Assembly: GCA_964437755.1 (NCBI GenBank)
Contig: CAYTIA010000002.1
Span: 34,107 to 98,106, forward strand
Origin: an uncultured Pseudomonadales bacterium
GTDB lineage: Bacteria > Patescibacteriota > Microgenomatia > UBA1400 > PJMF01
DNA: 64,000 nucleotides
Direction: 5' to 3'
Below, in pieces: positions 24,350 through 53,061 of this stretch (within the stretch, counting starts at the first letter, position 1; every line of letters begins with the position of its first letter). The notes below the pieces were generated by a model. That model had not been told where the DNA came from. It saw only the letters and a list, made by a program, of their open reading frames with translations, and made no database searches. The position numbers were made by a program, and so were the translations under genes.

Positions 24350-25525
24350 CTACTGAGTGTCAAAGGTTTGCACATCTACCATTTTATATACTGATGTTGA
24401 TACCTCTTTTATTAAGGAAGCTTGTTTAAGTAAATCTTCTCCAGAAGTCATTACACATAAAATATATGGATTTTTTTGATGATAAATGATTCCACAGTCA
24501 TGTAATTCTTTAAAGAGTGGTTGATTAGATCTATCCACGAATGTCCTCTCACCAAATTTATGAGCTACTTCAACATTTTCAGGGATGCCAGCCTTGAGTC
24601 CCTGATCAAATTTTGTTTTACTCAATAGCTTGAGAGCTTTTTCTGACATTTCATTATTTAGATACGAAGCGTTATAAAGTCTGCGAAAAACACTTGAGTA
24701 ATCTTTTACTTTAATAGTAAAATCAATGTCAGCCTGCTCATCATCTATTAAGCCCATTTTTATTTCGGTTGATTTGATTGCATCCTCACCAATGAATTCT
24801 GCCAATGTTTCTAAGACGGTGTTGTCAGAGTCAACGATAAGTTGTTCAAGCATCTTTTCTACTTCATATTCTTGTCCCTCTATTATTTTTTCAGCAGAAT
24901 TAAACTTTTGGGAGATTACACCTTCATCAAGATTAAGAGATATTTTTTTTGAAAGAATGTTGGGTTCCGCTTCAGCTTTTTTTAAGTACGCAATTAAAAT
25001 TGGAACTTTAAGCAAACTTGCGGGATCATAATTAACATCATCATTTATTGAGAACCACGGCCCGTTGTTTAAATCTCTGTAGTAGATTGAGACATCTTTT
25101 ACATAACCTTGTTGCTGATAATTTTCTATTAGGGTGTTTAGAGTCTTAATAGAGGTTTTTGTTTGGATTGAGCCTGACTGAGAAAATGACTCACACTCTA
25201 GCAAAGGACTTATATATTGGTATCCTTGCTCTCTTAACTCTTTGTGATCTGGAGAACCACTTCTTCTGTCATAAGTAATCCAAAAAATTGAAGAAATTAT
25301 TATTCCAATAATGACTCCAGTGGTTAAAAATAATAATGTTTTAGGAATAGTATTAACAGGTAGTTGATTTATTAGAATGCGATTACGGTCTATCAGTTTA
25401 ATTTGATTGAAGTTAATAAGTGACTGCCATTGACTTATCGAGTTGTTATAATAAAGTATTGTGGCATGTATTAAATGATTGTCAATCAGTCTTGGAGTTT
25501 GTATGAACTTTTTTTCAAAAATCAC
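24350..25525 (-). CDS. Membrane-anchored class-A beta-lactamase-fold serine hydrolase (PBP/beta-lactamase-like)
   Basis: SxxK (ASLLKV), SDN (VDSDNTV) and a KTG-like site (HKFGE) in the right order. N-terminal TM. The annotated start overlaps divergent mreB by about 23 nt, so the true start may use a non-ATG codon downstream. Confidence 0.55.
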   Translation of the reverse strand: MIFEKKFIQTPRLIDNHLIHATILYYNNSISQWQSLINFNQIKLIDRNRILINQLPVNTIPKTLLFLTTGVIIGIIISSIFWITYDRRSGSPDHKELREQGYQYISPLLECESFSQSGSIQTKTSIKTLNTLIENYQQQGYVKDVSIYYRDLNNGPWFSINDDVNYDPASLLKVPILIAYLKKAEAEPNILSKKISLNLDEGVISQKFNSAEKIIEGQEYEVEKMLEQLIVDSDNTVLETLAEFIGEDAIKSTEIKMGLIDDEQADIDFTIKVKDYSSVFRRLYNASYLNNEMSEKALKLLSKTKFDQGLKAGIPENVEVAHKFGERTFVDRSNQPLFKELHDCGIIYHQKNPYILCVMTSGEDLLKQASLIKEVSTSVYKMVDVQTFDTQ

Positions 25526-26546
25526 TCAATCTCTTAATCGTTCAGTTGGAATAGATCTTGGTTCAGGAAACTTACGAATTTGGGCTGAAGGTAGGGGCTT
25601 ATTACTTGATGAACCAAGCTTGGTCGCGGTTGATCAAGCAAACAATAAGGTAGTGGCTGTTGGCAAACGGGCTGACAACATGTTGGGTAGGGTTGATAAA
25701 TCAATCAAGATCTATTCTCCAGCGCTAACTCCCAAGTTTTCCGATGAAAAATTATTAAGAGCAATGTTAAAAATGTTTTTGGCCAAGGTTAGTGACCAAG
25801 TATATTTTTTCAGTCCAACGGTTGTTGTTGCTCTCTCTGACAGTTTTTATCCTTCGATGAAAGAAGTATTATTAAGAGTACTAACTGAGATTGGGGCTGG
25901 AGAAGTGATAATGATTGATCAATCTTTGGCTGCCGTACTCGGTTCAGGAGCACCTCTGTCGGATGCTTTAGGGATATTTGTTTTACAAATGGGGGAGGGT
26001 GTGGTTGAGGCCTCGGCTTTATCACTGGGTAAAGTGGTTGCAACTCAGCAGAGTTATAAAGCCGGAAATAGGTTGATTGATGAACTTATTTATTGGTTTG
26101 CAACTAATCAAAAATTAACAATTAGTCAAACAATAGCAAGGCAGTTTTTAATGACTGTTGGTTCTTTTGCCCCAGACACTAAGCGTTCAATGAATGTGAC
26201 AGGATTGGATGTTAAAACTGGAGAACCATTAGAAAAAATTGTTTTTTCTCATGAATTAGTAGATTTTTTTAATGAATATGGTTTGGAGTATGTAAACTTG
26301 GTAAAAAAGTTATTATCAAATATTTCTCCAGACTTGACAATTGATATTCTTGATAAGGGATTATTATTATCTGGCGGATTGGCCAACATTCACGGTATAG
26401 AAGAATATTTAACAAAAGAGTTGAGAGTGCCAACTTTTGTAGTTGATGATCCCAACTTAGCTGTGATTAAGGGTGTTGGAGAGATCATTGACCATCTTGA
26501 TGAGTTCAAACAGGGCTATGGATATCGGCCAATTGACAGTGATTAA
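25503..26546 (+). CDS. mreB: Rod shape-determining actin homolog MreB
   Basis: Likely start MNFFSKI at 25503. Phosphate-1 motif VGIDLGSGNLRI and C-terminal LLLSGGLANIHGIEEYLTKELRVPTFVVDDPNLAVIKG, typical of MreB. Confidence 0.8.
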   Translation: MNFFSKITQSLNRSVGIDLGSGNLRIWAEGRGLLLDEPSLVAVDQANNKVVAVGKRADNMLGRVDKSIKIYSPALTPKFSDEKLLRAMLKMFLAKVSDQVYFFSPTVVVALSDSFYPSMKEVLLRVLTEIGAGEVIMIDQSLAAVLGSGAPLSDALGIFVLQMGEGVVEASALSLGKVVATQQSYKAGNRLIDELIYWFATNQKLTISQTIARQFLMTVGSFAPDTKRSMNVTGLDVKTGEPLEKIVFSHELVDFFNEYGLEYVNLVKKLLSNISPDLTIDILDKGLLLSGGLANIHGIEEYLTKELRVPTFVVDDPNLAVIKGVGEIIDHLDEFKQGYGYRPIDSD

Positions 26547-28018
26547 GATGATTGGCCCTCTGTTTTGTTTTTTTCAACCCATTTCTTAAACTGATTTCCT
26601 CTATCAGCATAGTCCTTGAAAACTCCGAAGCTAGCAGCCCCCGGAGAGAGTAAGACAACCGAGTTTTTTTTGATATATTTTTTGGAAAAATTCATGGCTT
26701 CTTCCATTGAGTTGACAACTTTTGTTTCAATCTTTTTATTAAGGTGTTGGTTGAGGAGTTCATTTTGAATCTTCTCCTCCAGTCTTTTTCCGTTTTCTGG
26801 GAATAGGCCAACAGCAACAACATTGCAATGAATGATTTTTTCAGCAAGTGCTTGAAAATTTTGGTTACGTTCATGTCCTCCAGCTAAAAGAATGATCTCT
26901 TTCTTATCGAAGCAGGAAAGTGCCGAGATTGTGGCATCTGGCATGGTTGCCATCGAGTCATTTACATACACAACATCATTTATTATCCCAACCCTCTCCA
27001 ATCTGTGAGGCAGGGGAGTAAAGGAACCGATTGCATCTGAAATTTGTGAGATCGAAAGTCCAAATAATCTGCCAATAATAATGGTTGGAGCAATGTTTTG
27101 AAGATTGTGGGTACCTAGGAGTGGAATACTATCTTGATGAATAACTTGTTTTTCAAGCTCATTATGCTTAAAGGTTAAGTAATATGATTTAAGATAAACT
27201 TCTATATCAATATTGTTATTATTTTGTGTTTCTCCAACAATAAATTTTTGCTTAATACCTGGCGAAAGATTGGCAATTTTTGTTGTATTTCTTTTATTTG
27301 GATTAAATAATACATACTGATTAACCTTTTGATACTTTGTGATAGCTTCTTTTGCGTGAACATACTCATCAGTATTTTTGTAGTAATCAAGGTGTTCCGA
27401 AGTTATTTCTTGAACAACCGCTATATCGGGACTAATAGTTAAATGTGAAAGTTGATGAGATGACATCTCAATTACAAATACACCATTGTTTTTAATGTGA
27501 TTTATCTCTTCCAAAGCTGGTTTGCCAATATTCCCCACCAAAACAGACTTGATTTTGTTTGAGCTTAGAGTGTGATTGATGAGACTGGCAGTGGTGCTTT
27601 TCCCTTTGGTGCCTGTTACTCCTATGGTTAAAGGAGTGGGTAAATTTAGCATCTTTGTTTTTGATTTTTGCTTTTCTGTTTCAATAATTTCAAGCAGAAG
27701 CTGTAGATTTGAACTTATCTTGACACCAGCATCAATAGCATTTTTTATTTGGGGAGTGGATAAAGGTATCCCAGGTGTTTTGAAGATAAGTGTGTAAGAA
27801 TTAAGATTTTCAAGGTAGTTTAATCCAAGGTGAGTTATGAGATTGTTATCTGATGAAAATAAATCTGGTAATTCAGGATTTTCGTCAGCAACAGCAATAG
27901 TATTTGAGGGTAGAACTTGACGCAAAAATTTATAGGTTGATTGACCCTCTCTTCCTAAGCCTAAGATAAGTATTTTTTCTTTAACAAGTGAGTTAATTAT
28001 TTCTTGGTTTATCTTCAT
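26543..28018 (-). CDS. murD: UDP-N-acetylmuramoyl-L-alanine--D-glutamate ligase (MurD)
   Basis: N-terminal Rossmann-like ILILGLGREGQS. Mur ligase P-loop GVTGTKGKSTT. Mur ligase middle and C-terminal domains. Confidence 0.75.
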   Translation of the reverse strand: MKINQEIINSLVKEKILILGLGREGQSTYKFLRQVLPSNTIAVADENPELPDLFSSDNNLITHLGLNYLENLNSYTLIFKTPGIPLSTPQIKNAIDAGVKISSNLQLLLEIIETEKQKSKTKMLNLPTPLTIGVTGTKGKSTTASLINHTLSSNKIKSVLVGNIGKPALEEINHIKNNGVFVIEMSSHQLSHLTISPDIAVVQEITSEHLDYYKNTDEYVHAKEAITKYQKVNQYVLFNPNKRNTTKIANLSPGIKQKFIVGETQNNNNIDIEVYLKSYYLTFKHNELEKQVIHQDSIPLLGTHNLQNIAPTIIIGRLFGLSISQISDAIGSFTPLPHRLERVGIINDVVYVNDSMATMPDATISALSCFDKKEIILLAGGHERNQNFQALAEKIIHCNVVAVGLFPENGKRLEEKIQNELLNQHLNKKIETKVVNSMEEAMNFSKKYIKKNSVVLLSPGAASFGVFKDYADRGNQFKKWVEKNKTEGQSS

Positions 28019-28032
28019 ATTTTTTTAATGCT

Positions 28033-29412
28033 TTATGTTGAGAGGATTGTAACTAGTTTTTCATCTAAAAAATGTTTATTGTTCCAATCTTTCATGAGTT
28101 GGCCAGCAGAGTTACCTTCAGGGAGATTTTTTGCAATCTCTTGTAGAACGATGGGTAATTGTTGATTGCTATCAAGGTACTTATGAATTGATAATTTCAG
28201 AGCAGACTGAACCTCAAGATCAGTACCAACACAATCTAAGGGCTTGTTAATTGACGGATCAGCCAAGGCTCGGAAGGTGGGTATAAGAGAATTATCATTA
28301 AATAGATTGTGGCTAAATATTTTGGTGGTTAATAACTCCTTTTCAACAAACGGAAATAACATCAAAAAAACAAAGGCGCACTTTGCACAATGACCACACC
28401 AAGCATCTTGTTTTTGGCCAACGTTGCAACTTCTAAAATCAAGTAAAGAACTATGATATTGAGCAAACTTTGCAGCTATTTGCAACTCATTAAGAGGCCT
28501 TAAAAAGGACAGGTATTCGGCTTGTTTGGCTCTGCTTCCTAAGTATTGATTTGCATACTCTCTAAAACTGGTTTCAAACTCGAAACTTTTTGACCATTGG
28601 TGGTTAATCTCAATGTCTTTATATCTTAAGTTTGGTTGATTGGCAGAGCTTTCATTGGCTAATAGAATTTGCTGATGACCTTCTAGATGAGCCACAAGAG
28701 TAGATAAAAAAGCAAGATAAGCACTAAAAGGAGTGTGCCCATTAAGATAGCCGTGAATATTAAGTTTGAGTAGAGTGGGGCAGATAGTTCTGTGAACCAC
28801 TATCTGTTTTTTAGAGGTACTACTTGAGGCAAGTTTTGATGCTGCTGGTGAGGCTGGTTCAAGTACTAGGGTATGATAAGTTTCACTGGCTTGAGCTATT
28901 AAGTTAAGAGTTAATCCAGAGTCTTTTCCTCCTCCAACTGGAATTAAGTAAGGGGTGTGGTAATGGTCTGGCGCTAGAGGTGTTGGCTGAGCGGTGGGTG
29001 ACTTGGCAGTTGACGATATATTTAAAAAATTGGGTTGGTTAAAATCAATCTGGTTAGTGTAAAAAAACTCACCCAGCCCATGAATAAAAAGGTTGTGCCA
29101 CCAGCTAACTTGGTATTCATCAAGGTAGCCAGATTCAATAATTATTTCTTGAGGACAAGCGGCCTTCCAATAACTGGGCAATTCTGCAAGTCCGAGTTGG
29201 AAAATAAGTGAGTCTAGAAAGCTTTTTGGTATGTTGCTAAGCTGGCTGGGATCAATTCCGGAAACTATAAAAGATGGGGAAAAGATTATGTTGGGTTCAA
29301 GCAGAAAGGTATAGTTAACTTTAAGCTGAATGTTTTTATTAGGATTCAATTCATAATCAAAACTTTGATACCTAAGTGCGGAATGTTTTTGTCGCAGACT
29401 GTCAATTGTCAT
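28033..29412 (-). CDS. PP-loop ATP pyrophosphatase superfamily protein, QueC-like core (SGGKDS-type loop plus C-x10-C-x2-C-x2-C zinc site) with unique about 150-aa N-terminal domain
   Basis: 459 aa. PP-loop VGGGKDSGL at about residue 160. Cys cluster CNVGQKQDAWCGHCAKC near residue 330-345, resembling the QueC zinc site. The N-terminal 150 aa is not recognised. Confidence 0.5.
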   Translation of the reverse strand: MTIDSLRQKHSALRYQSFDYELNPNKNIQLKVNYTFLLEPNIIFSPSFIVSGIDPSQLSNIPKSFLDSLIFQLGLAELPSYWKAACPQEIIIESGYLDEYQVSWWHNLFIHGLGEFFYTNQIDFNQPNFLNISSTAKSPTAQPTPLAPDHYHTPYLIPVGGGKDSGLTLNLIAQASETYHTLVLEPASPAASKLASSSTSKKQIVVHRTICPTLLKLNIHGYLNGHTPFSAYLAFLSTLVAHLEGHQQILLANESSANQPNLRYKDIEINHQWSKSFEFETSFREYANQYLGSRAKQAEYLSFLRPLNELQIAAKFAQYHSSLLDFRSCNVGQKQDAWCGHCAKCAFVFLMLFPFVEKELLTTKIFSHNLFNDNSLIPTFRALADPSINKPLDCVGTDLEVQSALKLSIHKYLDSNQQLPIVLQEIAKNLPEGNSAGQLMKDWNNKHFLDEKLVTILST

Positions 29413-29763
29413 ATAACTCTATTATAATCTCTTTGAATAGTTCTGAAAGTAATATTGGTATAACTAAGAGATCTATCATTTATGAATAAAATAGATATTT
29501 AGTCAAGAAAAAATGTATACAAAAATGGTGAAAAATAATTTAGTGGTGAAAGGAAGAAAAGCAATTTTGTTCAAATTGGTAGCTGTAATGTTTGTCTAAT
29601 ATTCGGCAACAATGATAATATAGGTTGTGAAATAGAAAAAGAACGAAGGTTTAATATTAATTTTTTATTATAAATAAATTGCATTTTTAAGTTGTTTCTA
29701 TTCTAAACAAAAAATTACATAACTAATAAGTATAGATTGTATTAAAATTATCTTTTTTTAGGT

Positions 29764-30558
29764 ATGAGTAAAGTAGAAATAGAGCATGGAATAGTGAGTA
29801 TTTTTGGTTTGAGTCTCTTTAGCAGTAGTAAGAGAGAGCTGCTAGGTATTTTGCAAACTCACTTGACTAAGCAAAATGAGCCACTTTTTATCTTTACTCC
29901 CAATGCTGAGCAAATAGTCTTATCTTTAGAAAACCCAAACTTTAGACGGAACTTACAACAAGCAGATATACTTATTCCTGACGGATTTAGCTTGGTAATA
30001 GCTTCCTTTTTACTTTCTCTTTTGGGAAAATCTAGTAAAATTAGTCAAAAAATTGCTGGAGTTGATTTGGCACAAAATCTGATAAAAATAACTGAACAAA
30101 ATAATCAGGATATTTTGATTTTGGGAGGGAAAGACTATCAGTTATTACTAGATTCTAGTAGCCAAGTAAATAAATCTTTCAATCTCTGGAAACTAGACAA
30201 AAATCTTTATTGGACTCCAGCATACGGCGATTTTTCAAATTCGTCTAAGGAAGAACGAGCAACCCTTGTCAACAATATTAAAAATCTTAAACCAGCAGTA
30301 GTAATGGTGGCTTTGGGAGCGCCAAATCAAGAAAAGTGGAGCCTGGACAATCAACAACTACTTTCTGAATCTGGGGTAAAATTAGTGATGGTGGTGGGAG
30401 GAGCCTTCGATATCATCTTTGGAAGATTGAGAAGAGCCCCAAAAATTATGAGGGTATTTGGACTGGAATGGTTATTCAGACTGATTCAAGAACCATGGAG
30501 GTGGAAAAGACAACTGGGACTACTAAAGTTTTGGTATTATCTAGTTCTCAAGAGATAG
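29764..30558 (+). CDS. WecG/TagA/CpsF family (GT26) glycosyltransferase
   Basis: 264 aa. FTPNAEQIV...ADILIPDGFSLVIAS and C-terminal VMVALGAPNQEKW...VGGAFD match GT26 conserved blocks. Confidence 0.7.
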   Translation: MSKVEIEHGIVSIFGLSLFSSSKRELLGILQTHLTKQNEPLFIFTPNAEQIVLSLENPNFRRNLQQADILIPDGFSLVIASFLLSLLGKSSKISQKIAGVDLAQNLIKITEQNNQDILILGGKDYQLLLDSSSQVNKSFNLWKLDKNLYWTPAYGDFSNSSKEERATLVNNIKNLKPAVVMVALGAPNQEKWSLDNQQLLSESGVKLVMVVGGAFDIIFGRLRRAPKIMRVFGLEWLFRLIQEPWRWKRQLGLLKFWYYLVLKR

Positions 30559-30585: not shown

Positions 30586-30873
30586 CTACTCAATTTCGCT
30601 AGGATCGATTCCCAAGAGCCACAAAACAGATTCTTTTTTATATCTTCTGTCTCCTCGAGAGTTAATGCGAATAGCTGGAAGTTTTCCTCTTTTTCCCCAT
30701 CGTTTTATTGTAAGAGGGGATACTCTTAGTAAATCAGCAACTTCTCTGACTGTTAATAAGTCCGGTAGGTTGCTTAAATCGAGCTTGGCCGCATCCTTAG
30801 CACGACCTGTTTGACGGTCATCAGCATTAGAGCTTGTTTCTTGGCTAGTTGTAGTTGTCAAAGTGTCGGGCAT
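30586..30873 (-). CDS. Small excisionase/MerR-type helix-turn-helix DNA-binding protein
   Basis: 95 aa. LLTVREVADLLRVSPLTIKRWGKRGKLPAIRI matches the excisionase-family HTH (helix_turn_helix_17). Confidence 0.6.
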   Translation of the reverse strand: MPDTLTTTTSQETSSNADDRQTGRAKDAAKLDLSNLPDLLTVREVADLLRVSPLTIKRWGKRGKLPAIRINSRGDRRYKKESVLWLLGIDPSEIE

Positions 30874-31301: not shown

Positions 31302-32846
31302 GTGGATGATAATTTCTCTATGATGAATACAGAGTCTATCAATAGGCATGATCATGAGGCATTATTTAATCACAGAGAGATGTTGCGCAAAATACAAGCT
31401 GAACTTGTTTTGTTGACTGGTGAACCAGAGATAAGAAAAATTCCTCTTTCATTACAAGCTTTAACCAACGTTTTTCTTGAAGTTTTTAAAATAGATGGTG
31501 TGGTTGGGTTAGTAAGAAAATTAGCCCCTTATCTCGAGGCAACTGAAGCTAATCAGAGTTTAGTTGATAGGCTTAGAACTATGCAAGAAAATGGAGGTTC
31601 TCCTTGGGGGATATATTCAGTGCTTAATCTTTTGGGAATTCCCAGGGAAGATGAAAATAAACTTGCTGCCATAAGATACTCGTTGTTTATGGTTATTGAA
31701 GAAAATGTTTCGGCAGAGTTAATTGGCCAAGGTTTTTTTAAGAGCATGATGAATGGTTTTCCTTGGGAAAATGAAGATTTTATTTATTTTGATCCCAGAA
31801 TGGATCCAGTAAAAAAATACCTGCTTTCAAATCGAATTAAATCTTTACCAACCGTAACTAGCCAAGAAGACTCTTTCTTAGTGAACAGTTGCGAAATTCC
31901 TGCTGTGATCAATTTGGGGGAAATAAGCTATGGTGAAAATCATAGTCCTATTTTTTCTCAAGAGCAAAAAGATTTTCTGTATAATCAAATCTCTTTTAGA
32001 CCATTCATAATAGTGAGGGTAACAACTGGGGGGAATCCTGAAAAAACAATGGTATTAATGATAGCTAATCATCAATATTTAGATGGGGTTCCCGCTGGAC
32101 ACATGTTTGCTCAAACCCTACAGTTTATTAGTGATCAACTGGGGCAAAAAATCAAGCCCGCAACATTATTAGAAAGTGACCTTATTCTTGGAGATCAAGT
32201 TGAGAGGGCGACTTTAAAAAACCCTGATCAATATTTGGTTAACTCTCTGCAATTACCTGACGAGCTTGTTGCTGAGATTAACCATCTTTATTCTGAGATA
32301 TCTCAAACAGAGTGTGTGGTTTCTTATAATGACTTCTTTCAGTTATTGATGTTGGCAACTTATGGAGTAAATGGGACAACTGTTAAGGGAGGAGTTTTAG
32401 GATTTCGTCTTGACCCTTTTAAACAACTTGATCATTATGATGTTGGAGATGCATCAAAATTGTTAGAGGCCTTACTGGCTAATGATATGAAGGCAATAGC
32501 TCCCTATCTTGTAGATTACAAAGGTCAAAGAAGACTATCTTTGTATAGAGCTGAAGCTAGTAATATGGCGATCTTGGGTAAGTTGAGTAAGTTACCAGCT
32601 GCGCTAGCGGTTAGATTAAATGAGGTTGCACGATTGTTGGGAATAGATAAAGGTATTAGTGGTCAAATAATGACATCAATTATCCCTGACAAAATTGGGG
32701 CAATACATCTATCTGGTTTTGGTGGTCCGGCCGTTACTCCTTTTCAGGACTGTGGATTTACTGCTAGCATTAAACTCAGCGCTGATAGAAGATCTGCTAA
32801 GAGTATTGTGATTAGAGAAAAAATGAGAAAAAAGAAAAAGAAATAA
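31302..32846 (+). CDS. Hypothetical protein with C-terminal poly-Lys tail
   Basis: 514-aa ORF. No motif recognised. Ends REKMRKKKKK. Confidence 0.45.
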   Translation: MDDNFSMMNTESINRHDHEALFNHREMLRKIQAELVLLTGEPEIRKIPLSLQALTNVFLEVFKIDGVVGLVRKLAPYLEATEANQSLVDRLRTMQENGGSPWGIYSVLNLLGIPREDENKLAAIRYSLFMVIEENVSAELIGQGFFKSMMNGFPWENEDFIYFDPRMDPVKKYLLSNRIKSLPTVTSQEDSFLVNSCEIPAVINLGEISYGENHSPIFSQEQKDFLYNQISFRPFIIVRVTTGGNPEKTMVLMIANHQYLDGVPAGHMFAQTLQFISDQLGQKIKPATLLESDLILGDQVERATLKNPDQYLVNSLQLPDELVAEINHLYSEISQTECVVSYNDFFQLLMLATYGVNGTTVKGGVLGFRLDPFKQLDHYDVGDASKLLEALLANDMKAIAPYLVDYKGQRRLSLYRAEASNMAILGKLSKLPAALAVRLNEVARLLGIDKGISGQIMTSIIPDKIGAIHLSGFGGPAVTPFQDCGFTASIKLSADRRSAKSIVIREKMRKKKKK

Positions 32847-32855
32847 TTTACTCTT

Positions 32856-33416
32856 ATGAATCCAGGAACAATAGCTGCAACAAAAAACATCAACGGTCAA
32901 GAAATTGTCTTTCGATATCCCACGCTAAGTGATGCTGTGGCATTGATGGAGTATATCAACACTCTCTCAACTGAAAGAACTTTTATTCGTTTTCAAGGTG
33001 AACAAATATCTTTAGAAGAAGAGGAACAGTATTTAAAGAGTCTGCTTAAAGCAATGAAGGAGAAAAATGGTGGTGCGATTTTGGCTTGGCACGAAAATAC
33101 TCTAGTAGGGATGATTGGTTTAAGACCTCAAGAAAAAATAGAAAAACATGTTTTAGATTTTGGACTATCAGTAAAAAAAGAATATCGAGATCAAGGAATA
33201 GGAAAAGCTTTGATTCAAGTGATGTTGGATCAAGTCCGTCTTCACTTAACACATATCAGCATTGTCACTTTATCAGTTCAGGCTGATAATCTAAGAGCAG
33301 TTCATCTTTATCAAAAACTGGGTTTTATTGAGTATGGAAGGCTTCCAAAGGGAATATGTCGAAATAACGAATTTGAAGATAAAATATTAATGTATTTGCG
33401 ACTTTTTCATGAATAA
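32856..33416 (+). CDS. GNAT family N-acetyltransferase
   Basis: 186 aa. Acetyl-CoA motif RDQGIGKALIQ. Shared C-terminal block LHLYQKLGFIEYGRLPKG with the next gene. Confidence 0.7.
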   Translation: MNPGTIAATKNINGQEIVFRYPTLSDAVALMEYINTLSTERTFIRFQGEQISLEEEEQYLKSLLKAMKEKNGGAILAWHENTLVGMIGLRPQEKIEKHVLDFGLSVKKEYRDQGIGKALIQVMLDQVRLHLTHISIVTLSVQADNLRAVHLYQKLGFIEYGRLPKGICRNNEFEDKILMYLRLFHE

Positions 33417-33990
33417 TAACATCAAAAACTCACTGCCGCAGTTTATTTATCAAAAGCAGATCAATGGAAAAGATTTTTTATTTCGTTTTCCTGAACAAGG
33501 CGATACACTTCAAATGGTTGAGTACTCCAATGAGTTTAATGCTGAGAGCGAGTTTACCTTATTTCCAGAAGAAAGAATTAATTCTACAGATGCTCAGGTG
33601 TATTTAGCTAGAATCATTGGCAAGATTGAGCGACATGAATCAATATATCTTTTTGTTTTTTGCAAAAATGTTGACAAATTGAGGCTTGCGGGGAGAATTA
33701 ACATCAATCTTGAGCCAGGATTACAACAACATCTGGGTGAACTGGGGATTAGCATTCGAGAAGAGTATCGAAATATCGGTTTGGGGACGACATTAATCGA
33801 GCTGGCGATTGAAGTTGCTAAACGGTGGCTTTCTGGATTAGAAATAATTCAATTAACTACTTTTTCTACAAACCAGAGGGCGCTTCATCTCTATCAAAAA
33901 TTAGGTTTTAAAGAGTTTGGCCGGCTACCCAAAGGAGTAAAAAGAAGTGATCAGTATCAGGATTTTGTGTATATGTGGAGGGAGATTTAA
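33409..33990 (+). CDS. GNAT family N-acetyltransferase, tandem paralog
   Basis: 193 aa. RNIGLGTTLIE and LHLYQKLGFKEFGRLPKG. 8-nt overlap with upstream GNAT. Confidence 0.7.
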   Translation: MNNNIKNSLPQFIYQKQINGKDFLFRFPEQGDTLQMVEYSNEFNAESEFTLFPEERINSTDAQVYLARIIGKIERHESIYLFVFCKNVDKLRLAGRININLEPGLQQHLGELGISIREEYRNIGLGTTLIELAIEVAKRWLSGLEIIQLTTFSTNQRALHLYQKLGFKEFGRLPKGVKRSDQYQDFVYMWREI

Positions 33991-33994
33991 AGAG

Positions 33995-35641
33995 ATGTCT
34001 GTAGAGGAACCCAAATCAAGTCAAGGTCCAAGATTTAGTCGAAGAGAAGCTTTAAAAATTCTATTCCCAGTTGCTGTATCGGCAGTTGCTCATCAGATAA
34101 ACCCCAATAAAACAAAAGAGAGACAGCAGGAAATGACGAATGAGGAATTTATTGATTTTCATACTGAACAATTAAAAAGGATTTACAACATAGAAATATG
34201 TTTTTCTGCAAATGTAAGCATTTCACTAAGGAAGGCTAATCTAGAGGCAGCTCTATTTGCTGTAAGTAGATATCCCCCAATCTTTATTAATACAATAATG
34301 GCGCATTATGAAGCTGATAAATCCAGTTCAAATGAGGCATTTTTCTTTAGACCCGAGAAAGAACATGGAAGAACTAATGCTCTAAGAATTCAAATTAATA
34401 GCGATGAAGAATTTCCGTATGAAAAAGCAGCTGCGGTTGCATATCCATTAAGTGAAGCGCGCAATCTTTTCAGATCTATTTTACCTCAGATTTTTTTTCC
34501 AACAGCTTTTTATCATGAGCTTGCCCATAATATTCATGACTCAATTTGTTGGCTAAATTTCGTCTCACAAAAGCCTGAAGAAATGCCAGTAGAAACTTTT
34601 GGAACCAAACTTGCGGAGAAATTTGGAGTTGGTGGTAAACCAGCACCATTTATTTTGTTTCGCCCAGAGGGTTTTGCTTCAATGTATGCAGCAACCAATA
34701 ATCAAGAGAATTTTGCAGAAACGATGTCATATCTTATTGGTTATCCTCATCTTGCTATTCAAGAAGTAATCAATAATCCCAGATCTGAGTTAGCTATAAA
34801 GTTAATAGCAGTTGCCGATATTTTATATGTTTTTTCTGGGGGATTAATGGATGCACAGTACTGGAGAGATTCAATGACTAACAACGTTAATTTTGAGTAT
34901 TGGCTGGAAAAGAAAAAAACGACAGGAAAAGAGTATCTTGGAAGTGATAATAGGTTTTATTACTATACAAAATTTCCAAGTCAAGGGAATGAGGGTGAGA
35001 TGGAATCAGTATTGGTATATACAGAAGATCATCAAAAGGATGAGGCGGATATTCAGATAAGCGATTATGAAGCATATAAATCTGGAGATAGAGTAAGAAT
35101 TGCTAACAGAGAGATAAATTTGAGTATCAGTGAGGCTGGTGCGAATATTCAGGGAAAATCTCATACATATATGAGACATCTAGTTGAGGATGAAACTATC
35201 TATTTGGGAATGATTCCCTATGATTATCCAGATCGGATGAAAATGGTGTTTTCTACTATTGATATCACAGAAGAAGTTGAGATATTCGTTAGTCGAGATG
35301 GTACTCTGATGATAAGAAGAATTAAAAGCTATCCAACAAAGAATTTCCCATTGTTCAAAGATTTTCCAAAGGGACTGAGTGGCACAACCAGTCAGATTGT
35401 TGGTGGCTCAATCTTAGCAAATGCTGCCTTGCTGATCGATGAAAAAATTGATCGCCAGTTAAGGAAAAAAAGCACGCGTCGCAATTTTTTAAAGAATGTT
35501 GTTATGTCAGCCTTTGTTGTCGGAACTACTCTGGCAAGCGTGGGTTTAAGTAAGTTTCTTAATAATGCTGCAAAAACAGTCACGCCAACTATTGAAACTT
35601 ATGATAAGCTTCATAAAAAATTTTGGTCATATTTAGAATAA
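33995..35641 (+). CDS. Putative membrane-anchored zinc metallopeptidase (HExxH)
   Basis: Likely start ATG 33995 after a GGAGGGAG SD. HELAH motif (FYHELAHNIHD). C-terminal TM (VVMSAFVVGTTLASVGL). Confidence 0.45.
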   Translation: MSVEEPKSSQGPRFSRREALKILFPVAVSAVAHQINPNKTKERQQEMTNEEFIDFHTEQLKRIYNIEICFSANVSISLRKANLEAALFAVSRYPPIFINTIMAHYEADKSSSNEAFFFRPEKEHGRTNALRIQINSDEEFPYEKAAAVAYPLSEARNLFRSILPQIFFPTAFYHELAHNIHDSICWLNFVSQKPEEMPVETFGTKLAEKFGVGGKPAPFILFRPEGFASMYAATNNQENFAETMSYLIGYPHLAIQEVINNPRSELAIKLIAVADILYVFSGGLMDAQYWRDSMTNNVNFEYWLEKKKTTGKEYLGSDNRFYYYTKFPSQGNEGEMESVLVYTEDHQKDEADIQISDYEAYKSGDRVRIANREINLSISEAGANIQGKSHTYMRHLVEDETIYLGMIPYDYPDRMKMVFSTIDITEEVEIFVSRDGTLMIRRIKSYPTKNFPLFKDFPKGLSGTTSQIVGGSILANAALLIDEKIDRQLRKKSTRRNFLKNVVMSAFVVGTTLASVGLSKFLNNAAKTVTPTIETYDKLHKKFWSYLE

Positions 35642-47920: not shown

Positions 47921-48148
47921 ATGATTAAGATAACCACAAAAAAACTTTTAAGTGAGATCACGCTGTTTTTAATTGATCAACTTGAAAAAAATGAGATATC
48001 TATAGGTAGAGTTAAGAAAATATCTCGACAGATTTTGGCTGTTTTTCCAGATGAAAAGTGTGATAAAGATGAATTTCCAGTTGAGGTATTATCGCAGTTA
48101 ATAGAAATACCTGAAATTGATACCTTTTTTCAACAAAAGAAATGGTAG
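47921..48148 (+). CDS. Hypothetical small protein, translationally coupled to giant gene
   Basis: 75 aa. Stop overlaps start of 48142 ORF (ATGGTAG). Confidence 0.35.
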   Translation: MIKITTKKLLSEITLFLIDQLEKNEISIGRVKKISRQILAVFPDEKCDKDEFPVEVLSQLIEIPEIDTFFQQKKW

Positions 48149-51100
48149 CAGAAACGCCTCATCAAGAAGTAAACGCAGCCCAATCAAGGGAAGGAGAGTT
48201 TAGATTACGCGATTTATTAAGTGTTTTAAAAAGAGTAGCAGGACAAGAACCTCGGGTGGTACTTGCAACTTTTGTTAATATTGATGAATTTTTACCAACT
48301 GAGCAACAAAAGCAGCTAGTTAGTGAATTGCGTTGGGATCTTGGTGAAAAGAGAAAAACATATCGAAAATTTAAAGAGGCAGGAGTGAATCCTGAAAAGG
48401 CTCTGGATTTAATTGAATATCTTCAGAATGAGATACAGTTTTGCTCAGAGAAAGAGGAAGGTGAAGATAAGTCATGTGCGGGAGAAAAGATCTGTAAAAA
48501 TTACCGATATGAAGAAGGAGATTTTAGATATATTTGTAAATTGATTTCTCTTTCTGATGATCCAATTCAGCTTGTGATAGATATGGGGGAATTATTAGAT
48601 TTTAATGGTTATTATTCCTATCCATCAAGATTTATTTATCATCTTGCAGAATATGCAGAATCATTTTATCAAGCTCAACTTTCTCCACATTATCCTGAGG
48701 TTATTTCTTTAATAGGGGAGTTTTCAGGTGAGTCAGTTAAGATTAATTTCTCCGATTCTTCTTTTCGGTTCAACGAACAAGCTCAAAGAGACGAAAGACA
48801 ATTGAATAGAGTATATAGAGCAGTTCAAGATCCAGTGATTGTATTATCTAACATGGATCAGGTTGAGTTTAAGGGATTGTCCAATGGAGAAAATGTAAGG
48901 AGAGCAAAAGAGCTGTGGAATGAAATGTCTCAAGGAAAGAGTTTAAGGATAGAGTATATTCCAGAGTTATTAACCCTAGCTAATGATACTCAGCTTGCAA
49001 TTGGTTTTAAAGAAATGCTTGCTTACGATGGTCGATTAATGACGAAGATATACGAACAAGAACCTCAACAATTTGCTATTGCCATTGCGCGATTAAAAAA
49101 ACTCAAAGATGAAGTGCCTGAATTATGGGATCTACTTAAGTCTGGCTTTGATATTTCATGGTCATTTGACTATCCTCGTATGTATGGTTCAGATCCTCTT
49201 GATGTTTCGCAAATAGCTCAGCGTAGATACTCGTTTCAAGAAATATTGGCTAGTCAAAAACTAGTAACAAATGCACAGATTGTAGCTAGATATGATGATG
49301 AAAAATTAGAGGCAAGATCTTCCTTTGACGATATTTCTGATTATAAAAGGTATCGTTATACTTCCGATCCAGAAACTCTTGAGAAGAGTTATATTGCAGC
49401 TTATTCACTTGGACAGATATTTCAAAGATCGCGTTTTTCTGACATAAATAGGTACTATTTATGGCAAAACATAACTGAAACTGGCTGTCTAGATCATTTA
49501 TCAATTGAACAACTCAATCAGTTATTTACCCCTTTTGCTCAACTCATAGCAACAAAAGACTCTTCTTTTGTGGATGTTTTAGCTAAGATGGAGCCAAAGC
49601 TTTCTGATGTTATTGGATTAAGTCCCTCATTGGTTGAAGCTAAGGACCGTTTGGAGAAATTGTTATCAGATGAGATGCGGCTAATTGTGTCTGATAAGTC
49701 TTTTATGGATACTGTTTTTGGTGGAGAAATCTCTGGAGCAAGAGACTGGGAATTGATTCTTTCCAATTTGGATCAATATTATCAGCTCTTTCAAAAAAAA
49801 GATGAATTAGAGGCAAAAATTCATCTGTTAGAACACCCCGAATCAGGAGGGTATAGAGTTTCTGTCACTAGAGATTTGCAATTACTATTTTTAGTTTTAG
49901 AAATACCAGATTCGGTTTTAATCGAAATGTCAGAAGAGTCTGCCTCTTTACATCTAACGGTGAATTCAGATGCTGTAAGAAGATATATCTCTTACAGACT
50001 TCTCACTGATGCTGAAAAACAACAACTGCTTGATGGTGTTGGCAGTCAAAAGTATCAAAATGCAATCAAAAGTATTTACGATACAAGACTAAGCCTTACT
50101 GATCTAAGAAAATATATTATGCTTGATTCTGAAAAAAAAGACAAAGTTTGGGAGATGGTAACTCAGTTAGAAGCGGAATTGCACATTAGTGTGGCAAATT
50201 TTAGTGATACTAATGATCTTATCGGATTTCCTCTTGGGTTTTTATGTGAGTTGGTATCAAGCGACTCACTTTATGTGACTTTTGAGAATTTTATCTCTCA
50301 TGTTTTAGATGAACAAGACGATTCGATTGATTCTAATGGCAGACTTAAATGTTTTAGAATATGTGCAATTTTGTTAGCTAATCATCAACAAGATTTAGAA
50401 TTTAATTTTAATGAATATATTACACCACAGGGAGTACCTACTTCAAAGTTATTACTTGAGTTAGCTAATTCCAATCTTACAAATTTACACTGGGTGAGAC
50501 CATATATAACTGATCAATCCTTGCAGGAGATGGAGGAAGACGATCGAAACTTCTGGAAATTTTGGATTACTTTTAATGATGATACAAATTTCCAAAGATA
50601 TCTGCTTGAAAATAAATCAAGATTTGCTGAGTGGATTCAGGATGGAGTGGCGACACACGCTTTTATCTTGGAATTAGCTAGAAACAATCTTGCCGGAATC
50701 GGAACGATTCAAAAACTAATTGAACCAGCTTTATTAAAGATGTCGAAAGATGAAACAGACTTTTGGTCTTTTTGGAAAACATCTTCAGCTGTTGAGAGGA
50801 GGGTGATTACTTCGAATAATGAGCGCTTTTCCCAGCTAGTTGTTGAAGGCGTTCCTACTGCAGTTTTCTATGAATTGGTTGCTAAAGAAAGTCCAGAACA
50901 TTTCATGGAAAACTATGACATCAATGATCTTGCCTCTGACTTAGATCAGAGAACTAGATTTAGAGAAATTGTTTTACAAGCTTTTATTGATAAACATACT
51001 CAGAATCCATATTTTCAAATGGTTTATCGTTTATTAAAAGGAGAGATTGCCGACAGGGGTGTAATAAGTGAATCAATTAAAGAGATGTTTAATCAGGGCT

Positions 51101-53061
51101 ATGGCATGGAGGTTGATGAAGAGTTTGTCACAACTCTTGATCAGTATATAGAAAATTCTCAAGAAGAAAAATACAATCCTATCATTCCAGATAGAGAGGC
51201 CTTTTGGAATGAAAATATACGAATATATTTAGCAGTAAGGAAACTCAAATGGACAATTAATGGATTTGAAAGATTTAGGAGTCTCGTCCAAAATTCTGCT
51301 GTTAATCAAATTTTAAGTGATGAAGGAAATATTGTTCGTTTGCAACAAATATCACCAAAAATTGGGTTAAATGCTAATAATATTTTTTATGTGAATAGTA
51401 CCTCGTTGTTATGGTTGTACGAGAATTCTTCAGTTGAACCTTGTGTTGGATTTTTTAGAAGAATTCTTAATGAGAAGCCAACAAGTTTGAATAGTTGCGC
51501 CTTAACCTTTAGTCAGATTTCTGAAGGAAAAAGAGCTTTACTTTTTACAGATCCTTTATACCAAGAAAGGTTATTTGAAGCGATGGGAGAGTTTAAGAAT
51601 GTCGTTCCATCTTTAATTGACGGCTATGTTTTAGAAGACGATTTAAATGAAAGAGTTGCTTTTAGAGAAAAAATTAACGAGTTTAGAAGACGAGTTCATC
51701 GGAACCTACCGATTTTAGACCTTGTAAAGAATTATGAAGATAGAAGAACTATTGCTGACATGATTGCTCTTACCTTTCCTGGAACAAATCAAGGTGGTAT
51801 CTTGTCACAGATTGAGATGGCAGGCGATAGGTGTGATGATCTTAAGGAACTAACTATCAGGGATGAAGGTTATGTTGGTCAAATCTTTTCTAGAGAGAAG
51901 ATGGTTATTTTGAGGGAGGCTAATCAGCCAATTGACGAGGGAATAATCAATTTATTAAGATCAGTATTTTCTCTTCCCCAAGAAAGACCACAAAATCAGG
52001 ACAAAGAGGCTCAACTAGCATCTAAAGGTTGGTCAAGGCTAATCAAAGAAGCTGGTTCAACTAAAAGTGAAGTATTTTTAGCTACAGCTATGAGCGAGGC
52101 TATTGCCTGTGTACGAGTGGCCATGGGTGAAAAAGTTGAACAGTTCTATGAAATGATCTCAAGGGATCTTTCTCAGGTACAAAGTAAAGCAGAGTTGTTA
52201 ACAAAAGCTAAAGAGTTGTTTGGTATTTATTATAAGGATAATGCAACTGAGGCAATTGATCAGTTCTTGACTCAAAATTCAGATATTGAGCAGCGACTTT
52301 TAGGACAGCTATCACCAAAAAGAATTCAAGCATTAGAAAAAAACATCGGTTCTTCGAGAACAATAAGTGAAGCTAAAAGACAAGAATTTTTGCAGATTAT
52401 AATCAATTTAAAAGATCCTCAAACTCCTGAAGTAAAAAGAAAAGCATTGGCTGGATTGTTAGCATTTTTATCAGAGAGGGGTTTGTTTGCTGGTAGCCAG
52501 GGTTTGCGTAAAAAAGTAGATAATGAGTTGGCCAAGTTGGTTTTAGTAGATAAAGAGGGAGAGGATGCAGTAGATGAATCATTGTTACTAAGAGGTTTTG
52601 CTACAAAAAATGCAGCTTCCTTTTTTGCTAAAACTACAGCTGGTATTTGTACAGCTCAAGACTTTGGTTTATATCATCGACCAGATCATTTTCATATAAA
52701 TCTAATTAATCAAGAAGATGTTGTGGTGGGAAATATTCAAGGGTATTTGGTCGAAGATTTTGAGGGCGAAAGAGCCGTAATATTTAGAGGTTTTAACCCT
52801 TCATCCAGCATTGTTAGTTCAACTAATGCTGCGGTTATTTGTGATCAAATGGTAAGTATTGTGAGGCAGCTTGCCGCAGACAATGGAATAAAACACGTTT
52901 TAATACCCCAGCAAAATAATTGGCATCCACTAACCAATCGAGTTGGTGAGGGAATAGTTGAATATTTTGCCTCTCGTTTTTATAAAGAAGAAAATAAAGT
53001 TGATTTTCAATTTAATATTACTGAAACGCAGGAAGTGAATACTTTTTATAAGATGGCCTAG
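48142..53061 (+). CDS. Giant hypothetical protein (1639 aa) with internal tandem repeats
   Basis: Uninterrupted 4.9-kb ORF, no signal peptide or TM. At least two about 70-aa tandem repeats (GVPTSKLLLELANSN..EEDDRNFWKFWITF..NKSRFAEWIQD and GVATHAFILELARNN..KDETDFWSFWKTS..NNERFSQLVVE), with a third partial copy. C-terminal about 130 aa with conserved-looking Cys/His/Asp positions (GICTAQDFG..HRPDHFH..). Confidence 0.6.
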   Translation: MVAETPHQEVNAAQSREGEFRLRDLLSVLKRVAGQEPRVVLATFVNIDEFLPTEQQKQLVSELRWDLGEKRKTYRKFKEAGVNPEKALDLIEYLQNEIQFCSEKEEGEDKSCAGEKICKNYRYEEGDFRYICKLISLSDDPIQLVIDMGELLDFNGYYSYPSRFIYHLAEYAESFYQAQLSPHYPEVISLIGEFSGESVKINFSDSSFRFNEQAQRDERQLNRVYRAVQDPVIVLSNMDQVEFKGLSNGENVRRAKELWNEMSQGKSLRIEYIPELLTLANDTQLAIGFKEMLAYDGRLMTKIYEQEPQQFAIAIARLKKLKDEVPELWDLLKSGFDISWSFDYPRMYGSDPLDVSQIAQRRYSFQEILASQKLVTNAQIVARYDDEKLEARSSFDDISDYKRYRYTSDPETLEKSYIAAYSLGQIFQRSRFSDINRYYLWQNITETGCLDHLSIEQLNQLFTPFAQLIATKDSSFVDVLAKMEPKLSDVIGLSPSLVEAKDRLEKLLSDEMRLIVSDKSFMDTVFGGEISGARDWELILSNLDQYYQLFQKKDELEAKIHLLEHPESGGYRVSVTRDLQLLFLVLEIPDSVLIEMSEESASLHLTVNSDAVRRYISYRLLTDAEKQQLLDGVGSQKYQNAIKSIYDTRLSLTDLRKYIMLDSEKKDKVWEMVTQLEAELHISVANFSDTNDLIGFPLGFLCELVSSDSLYVTFENFISHVLDEQDDSIDSNGRLKCFRICAILLANHQQDLEFNFNEYITPQGVPTSKLLLELANSNLTNLHWVRPYITDQSLQEMEEDDRNFWKFWITFNDDTNFQRYLLENKSRFAEWIQDGVATHAFILELARNNLAGIGTIQKLIEPALLKMSKDETDFWSFWKTSSAVERRVITSNNERFSQLVVEGVPTAVFYELVAKESPEHFMENYDINDLASDLDQRTRFREIVLQAFIDKHTQNPYFQMVYRLLKGEIADRGVISESIKEMFNQGYGMEVDEEFVTTLDQYIENSQEEKYNPIIPDREAFWNENIRIYLAVRKLKWTINGFERFRSLVQNSAVNQILSDEGNIVRLQQISPKIGLNANNIFYVNSTSLLWLYENSSVEPCVGFFRRILNEKPTSLNSCALTFSQISEGKRALLFTDPLYQERLFEAMGEFKNVVPSLIDGYVLEDDLNERVAFREKINEFRRRVHRNLPILDLVKNYEDRRTIADMIALTFPGTNQGGILSQIEMAGDRCDDLKELTIRDEGYVGQIFSREKMVILREANQPIDEGIINLLRSVFSLPQERPQNQDKEAQLASKGWSRLIKEAGSTKSEVFLATAMSEAIACVRVAMGEKVEQFYEMISRDLSQVQSKAELLTKAKELFGIYYKDNATEAIDQFLTQNSDIEQRLLGQLSPKRIQALEKNIGSSRTISEAKRQEFLQIIINLKDPQTPEVKRKALAGLLAFLSERGLFAGSQGLRKKVDNELAKLVLVDKEGEDAVDESLLLRGFATKNAASFFAKTTAGICTAQDFGLYHRPDHFHINLINQEDVVVGNIQGYLVEDFEGERAVIFRGFNPSSSIVSSTNAAVICDQMVSIVRQLAADNGIKHVLIPQQNNWHPLTNRVGEGIVEYFASRFYKEENKVDFQFNITETQEVNTFYKMA

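Follow-up and report, generated by a model that had tools for sequence, protein, structure and literature searches.

The D-glutamate at position 2 of the peptidoglycan stem peptide can be supplied by the racemase MurI acting with canonical MurD, and it is likewise supplied by the MurL/MurD2 system, which was reported by Feng et al. (2017) and is drawn on here as presented in two reviews by the laboratory that discovered it (PMC8788868; PMC5808125). MurI is a cofactor-independent racemase with two cysteines that works reversibly on free glutamate before ligation, whereas MurL works on the ligated product, at the cost of ATP, and is unidirectional (PMC8788868). X. oryzae lacks a glutamate racemase, and its MurL (XOO_1319) converts the ligation product to the D-Glu form, using one ATP, releasing AMP and proceeding from L to D only; orthologues from Micromonospora and Salinispora have also been assayed (PMC8788868; PMC5808125). 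Adenylation of the carboxylate by MurL is a step put forward by the discoverers, and the same reviews describe MurL as having no recognisable domains and as confined to a few genera, cyanobacteria having orthologues of 'low similarity' (PMC8788868; PMC5808125). With regard to the ligase, Glu197 and Arg358, the counterparts of E. coli Asp182 and Lys348, set the L-Glu specificity of MurD2, and the double mutant is converted to D-Glu; mutation of the X. oryzae Pro433 and Phe435 positions left specificity unchanged, and E. coli MurD carrying K319T, a product of random mutagenesis, accepts L-Glu (PMC8788868). A search of the literature beyond these 2018 and 2021 reviews found nothing on a MurL structure, on a PP-loop description of MurL or on MurL in CPR bacteria.

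The gene considered here lies in a window of 64,000 nucleotides, by which is meant the whole stretch of DNA that was analysed. An earlier note on this DNA had drawn attention to a 459-aa ORF with a PP-loop, and both are present, the loop reading GGGKDS at residues 160-165; the coordinates of this and the associated features are collected in Table 1. The sole NCBIfam match of the encoded protein is NF041275 (MurL_Xanthmoales, UDP-N-acetyl-alpha-D-muramoyl-L-alanyl-L-glutamate epimerase), with E=4e-68 over residues 72-407. Precomputed Pfam annotation of the exact window protein assigns both PF26299 (MurL_N) and PF26298 (MurL_epimerase_C), and it is only as precomputed annotation that these families were seen, a local Pfam-A scan of the protein having returned no match. 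The N-terminal domain, which had been taken for novel and unrecognised, is thus a curated Pfam family. It had also been credited with making the protein twice the size of QueC; residues ~1-138 do contribute to the difference, and so does a C-terminal helical extension of ~100 aa (residues ~361-459).

The score of the window protein against NF041275 is 229.9 bits, which does not reach the equivalog cutoff of 700 bits, and eight diverse relatives all score 220-270 bits, likewise below 700; the model is clade-specific, and a score below its cutoff rules out a 'Xanthomonadales equivalog', not family membership. Judged by these scores, the window protein and its relatives form a large sister clade, distant from the Xanthomonadales type, for which function is predicted. 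UniRef gives the name MurL to a Gottesmanbacteria homologue with 48% identity to the window protein, several relatives are already called MurL by JGI and NCBI, and many NCBI entries for homologues still read 'hypothetical protein'. A bridging homologue search starting from a high-GC locus (L009) recovered only uncultured Binatia, Acidobacteria and similar lineages and reached no assayed MurL, and placement in the family rests on the MurL models rather than on direct alignment to an experimentally tested MurL. By the evidence of those models the flagged gene is a MurL orthologue, belonging to a system already described and named in databases rather than encoding a new enzyme. The family is a large one: an exhaustive profile search at E<=1e-30 gives 1,614 clusters at 50% identity, and at least 593 MurL matches were confirmed when one genome per species was scanned.

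Table 1. Coordinates, in the 64,000-nucleotide window, of murL, its domains and motifs, and the adjoining features
Feature	Coordinates	Strand	Remarks
murL ORF	28033..29412	-	ATG start, 459 aa; NCBIfam NF041275, Pfam PF26299 and PF26298, AF2 model
MurL_N domain, residues 1-138	28999..29412	-	Pfam PF26299
QueC-like PP-loop ATPase core, residues ~150-360	28333..28965	-	
PP-loop GGGKDS, residues 160-165, predicted ATP pyrophosphate-binding loop	28918..28935	-	
Cys4 cluster C329-x9-C339-x2-C342-x2-C345, QueC-type, probably zinc	28378..28428	-	metal identity presumptive
Cys394 in K-P-[FL]-[ED]-C-V-G-T motif, candidate catalytic residue	28231..28233	-	81/81 conservation
murD (MurD2 type)	26543..28018	-	TIGR01087 murD, 333 bits; alignment to E. 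coli MurD
murL-murD spacer, 14 nt, AGCATTAAAAAAAT	28019..28032	-	
Divergent intergenic region murL/GT26, 351 nt, AT-rich, presumed promoter region	29413..29763		
WecG/TagA/CpsF (GT26) glycosyltransferase, diverges from murL	29764..30558	+	

Conservation was assessed over a sample of 81 MurL sequences from many phyla. Within the PP-loop, G162 and D164 are invariant (81/81), and K163 and S165 are kept in 77 and 76 of the 81 sequences, respectively. The four cysteines C329, C339, C342 and C345 are invariant throughout the sample, as are a fifth cysteine, C394, in the motif KP[FL][ED]CVGT, together with P391. The same holds for R208, H226, H271, K275 and K344 and, within the N-terminal domain and its SYWK and GLGEFFY motifs, for F44, F71, G74, E77, Y81, K83, G112 and N120; R305 is conserved in all sequences but one (80/81). 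With a family of this size and motif residues conserved to this degree, a chance explanation of the motifs is excluded. Cys394 sits within the C-terminal extension, a part of the protein that QueC does not have.

The structural reading given in the earlier note is correct. An AlphaFold2 model of MurL from 57 homologues is of very high confidence, with a pLDDT of 95.7 and a pTM of 0.94. When the sequence profile was compared with all PDB chains, no solved MurL was found, all matches being PP-loop proteins that align at the motif, where the MurL loop corresponds to SGGKDS of TtuA and SGGQDS of QueC. The nearest solved folds are QueC, NAD synthetase, the nitrile synthetase ArtA and N-acetyl-sugar amidotransferase, and the top structural matches are QueC (PDB 3bl5) and CBASS Cap9 (PDB 9nto), at only 14-17% identity. 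The window MurL has in common with QueC both the PP-loop fold and the C-terminal Cys4 zinc motif: E. coli QueC carries C188-x8-C197-GH-C200-AA-C203 at a distance of 179 residues past the PP-loop, and MurL carries C329-x9-C339-GH-C342-AK-C345 (CGHCAKC versus CGHCAAC in QueC) at a distance of 169 residues. The likeness of this cluster to the QueC zinc site had been recognised in the earlier note, and it holds, with the first spacing corrected from C-x10 to C-x9; by analogy with QueC, the site would bind structural zinc. When the MurL profile was compared by hhalign with just one QueC sequence, that of E. coli, the alignment spanned 32 columns, at the PP-loop only, with a probability of 4%, and the window protein has no QueC family match in Pfam or NCBIfam. 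Because the profile alignment covers the PP-loop only, the relationship rests on structure and motif and not on sequence homology, and MurL is not a member of the QueC family. Relative to QueC and Cap9 it adds the 138-aa N-terminal domain, the ~100-aa C-terminal extension and the fifth invariant cysteine, and it differs from them in its substrate, a UDP-MurNAc dipeptide, and in its outcome, which is stereoinversion and hydrolysis rather than formation of an amide or nitrile. QueC-type enzymes adenylate a carboxylate, and a QueC-like fold thus gives a plausible rationale for the published ATP-to-AMP stoichiometry of MurL.

The partner ligase lies directly downstream of murL on the same strand, as had been reported, at a distance of 14 nt rather than 15, and since no terminator-like site was found in the spacer between murL and murD, the two genes are likely to be co-transcribed. 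Alignment to E. coli MurD places Glu208 of the window MurD at E. coli Asp182 (Glu197 in X. oryzae MurD2), Arg384 at Lys348 (Arg358), Phe464 at Leu416 (Phe435), Ala462 at Ala414, a position at which X. oryzae MurD2 differs in having Pro433, and Met356 (26951-26953) at Lys319, for which the review does not give the X. oryzae residue. Both published determinants of L-Glu specificity, Glu208 and Arg384, are therefore present in the window MurD, and the equivalent of Lys319 is absent. The pattern is general among the relatives: the Glu plus Arg signature occurs in 70 of the 73 scoreable MurL-linked MurDs (loci L003-L082), and the Lys319 position in these proteins is occupied by Leu, Ile, Met or Gln, with Lys in none of the 73. 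Canonical MurDs with solved structures, from five species, have Lys319 in 5/5 and Asp182 with Lys348 in 4/5. Loss of Lys319 as a natural signature of MurD2 was not listed in the searchable literature, and the combination Glu182/non-Lys319/Arg348 offers a practical three-residue signature for separating MurD2 from MurD in annotation. Judged by these residues, the window MurD bears the signature of an L-Glu-specific MurD2, and such a ligase would create the need for an epimerase, not an amidase.

Gene order in relatives was followed in 80 loci fetched among the MurL matches listed in the one-genome-per-species scan, which by record title span Patescibacteria, TM6, Bacteroidales, Clostridia, Acidobacteria, Rokubacteria, Proteobacteria and Actinomycetota. 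These taxon names need caution, as several records (L003, L004, L014 and L033, for example) are MAGs titled 'uncultured Pseudomonadales' or 'Enterobacteriaceae', titles that are probably mislabelled; the loci under doubtful titles hold the closest MurL relatives of the window (48-54% identity), some of them with CPR-like gene order. A same-strand murD is found downstream of murL in 76 of the 80 loci, mostly overlapping it or a few dozen bases away, and one of the four loci that have no downstream murD ends 94 nt past murL. In six of those 76 loci murL and murD are a single ORF of 774-934 aa, and about 30 of the best 150 MurL representatives from the exhaustive profile search are fusions. The eight fusions examined (including P0186, P0158, P0127 and P0121) involve MurD-type ligases at either end, a PF01225 ligase and MurB: P0186 (791 aa) is a MurL-MurB fusion, and P0158 (932 aa) joins MurL to a ligase whose N-terminal domain, PF01225, is typical of MurC/E/F. 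Directly upstream of murL, mraY is present in 20 of the 80 loci (among them L008, L016, L020, L022, L025, L027, L028, L039, L042, L045, L047 and L048), giving the order mraY-murL-murD, and an ftsW homologue is also present in 16 loci, in most of them downstream of murD. With mraY upstream and an ftsW homologue nearby, murL is placed inside the classical dcw order, inserted at the position of murD. Conservation of the murD linkage in relatives, a check set beforehand, is thus amply observed, and the linkage and the fusions support a functional tie of the flagged gene to murD and not to queuosine. The earlier suggestion that the substrate is a cell-wall precursor is supported as well.

The wider neighbourhood of the pair is less uniform. 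The GT26 glycosyltransferase described in the earlier note does diverge from the intergenic region shared with murL and is of the WecG/TagA type; an Rfam scan of this 351-nt region found no match to a structured RNA family, and a promoter scan was uninformative in DNA so rich in AT. A WecG homologue is upstream and divergent in only 6 of the 80 murL loci, and a convergent mreB accompanies it in five of the six; these five, which include the closed TM6 genome CP011212.1, match the window layout of a divergent wecG, murL-murD and a convergent mreB. Other closed genomes with the murL-murD pair are CP011210.1 (Beckwithbacteria), CP179889.1 (Nealsonbacteria) and OY969803.1. In the window, mreB (25479-26546, +) and murD share 4 nt at their 3' ends. 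The 5' end of mreB overlaps by 47 nt the 5' end of a divergent ORF (24350-25525, -) for a 391-aa protein resembling class-A beta-lactamases and PBPs (Pfam Beta-lactamase2, residues 146-360), and because of this overlap the listed TTG start of mreB probably lies too far upstream. Beyond the GT26 gene there is a MerR/HTH_17 gene (30586-30873), followed by a possible small operon (31302-35641, +) that starts with a 514-aa ORF with no Pfam match; two GNAT acetyltransferase genes in tandem (32856-33416 and 33409-33990) come next, and then a gene for a 564-aa protein that weakly resembles zinc metallopeptidases. Two pairs of ribosomal protein genes that usually adjoin each other, rplK-rplA (L11, L1; 55261-56619, -) and rplJ-rplL (L10, L7/L12; 36648-37723, -), are ~17.5 kb apart, with ThrRS and a 1,639-aa ORF among the genes in between. 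L1 is encoded by an ORF of 265 aa, with its Pfam match limited to residues 145-245. The 1,639-aa ORF (48142-53061, +) is the largest gene of the window and has no Pfam match at E<=1e-3. The ORFs of the 64-kb window that were scanned with Pfam include no murI and no D-amino-acid (class-IV) aminotransferase, nor do they include any queD, queE, queF, tgt, CD-NTase or TGT-like gene.

The explanation that best accommodates these observations, and one that is very probably correct, is that the window pair encodes the alternative MurD2/MurL route to peptidoglycan D-glutamate. MurD2 would ligate L-Glu, not D-Glu, onto UDP-MurNAc-L-Ala, and the PP-loop core of MurL would adenylate the alpha-carboxylate of the terminal Glu, with ATP giving acyl-AMP and PPi. 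The activated C-alpha proton of this Glu would be taken off and then returned on the opposite face, and the base may be one of the invariant residues, for example Cys394, His226, His271 or Lys275. Experimental support for both activities, for the stoichiometry and for the unidirectionality comes only from the X. oryzae, Micromonospora and Salinispora orthologues; the present analysis contributes family membership, the MurD2 residues, the near-universal linkage and the fusions, the QueC-like fold and the conservation of the PP-loop and cysteines, and on this combined basis we infer the same MurL/MurD2 activity in this clade as in the assayed orthologues. Like X. oryzae MurL (XOO_1319) and MurD2 (XOO_1320), the window pair consists of a gene for a MurD-like ligase beside one for an enzyme of ~450 aa, and the parallels extend to the significant homology to the MurL model, to both Pfam MurL domains, to the Glu/Arg pair in the window MurD and to a PP-loop fold that fits AMP-forming chemistry. 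The differences are that the window MurL belongs to a distant sister clade (230 bits versus the 700-bit cutoff), known here from sequence, that the window order is murL then murD, that the window MurD has Ala at the Pro433 position, and that the host is a low-GC (~36%) bacterium which, judged by its nearest named homologues, probably belongs to the Microgenomates group of Patescibacteria (CPR). Weighing against the explanation are the distance from the Xanthomonadales model, the Ala at the Pro433 position and the active MurI of at least one CPR bacterium.

Among the alternatives, the one that survives best, although it is improbable, is that the protein is a true member of the MurL family that has drifted in function, so as to act at another position of the stem peptide, on another nucleotide-sugar peptide, or in salvage or proof-reading beside a canonical MurI. 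A distance that leaves only ~230 bits to the Xanthomonadales model would leave room for such drift, as would the occurrence of MurL fused to MurB and to a ligase whose N-terminal domain is of the MurC/E/F type, and an active MurI is reported for at least one CPR bacterium (doi 10.1111/1462-2920.16621, cited as reference 104 of PMC11974145). It is difficult, however, to reconcile drift with partners that have the MurD2 determinants in 70 of 73 cases and that all lack Lys319, with a murL that fills the slot beside murD in dcw clusters, or with putative catalytic residues that are invariant over all phyla sampled. The proposal of the earlier note was amidation of a wall precursor, whereby a PP-loop enzyme would adenylate a wall-precursor carboxylate and pass it to ammonia or an amine, yielding for example iso-glutamine, as in QueC, NAD synthetase and asparagine synthetase. 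The amidation of peptidoglycan Glu that is known is carried out by MurT/GatD on lipid II and is unrelated to MurL. The murD linkage on which the proposal drew is real and the nearest solved folds are indeed amidating or nitrile-forming PP-loop enzymes, but neither the adjoining genes of the window nor the eight fusion proteins examined include a glutaminase or amidotransferase partner, the L-Glu signature of the partner MurD calls for an epimerase, and in the characterised members of the MurL family the product is an epimer rather than an amide and AMP is released (PMC8788868; PMC5808125), all of which makes amidation very unlikely. Hardly credible at all is a QueC paralogue engaged in 7-deazaguanine chemistry, whether for a queuosine or archaeosine precursor or in a Cap9-like CBASS defence role, given that the top structural matches to QueC and Cap9 and the nearly identical zinc motif are set against an identity of 14-17% only, a profile alignment confined to the PP-loop, N- and C-terminal domains absent from QueC, Pfam-scanned window ORFs that include no que, tgt, CD-NTase or TGT-like genes, and linkage and fusions that are overwhelmingly to Mur enzymes.

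With the assignment to the MurD2/MurL route, an apparent orphan 'QueC-like' gene becomes a matter of routine annotation as murL plus murD2, and the organism is predicted to build its stem peptide by ligation of L-Glu first and epimerisation second. The pathway looks far wider than the 'few genera' of the reviews, with its 1,614 clusters and at least 593 matches, and this breadth bears on proposals that make MurD2/MurL a narrow-spectrum antibiotic target. A more ambitious reading, offered tentatively and with somewhat less than an even chance of being right as a whole, is that MurL/MurD2 is a major source, perhaps even the only one, of peptidoglycan D-Glu in large uncultured lineages, namely Patescibacteria/CPR including this organism, TM6, many Bacteroidales, Acidobacteria, Clostridia and cyanobacteria, and that the mechanism employs a QueC-derived PP-loop adenylation core and a Cys4 metal site, with Cys394 serving either as the base in the stereoinversion or as a thioester nucleophile. 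As a mechanistic lead, the QueC-type core, the Cys4 site and the fifth invariant cysteine provide concrete residues to mutate.
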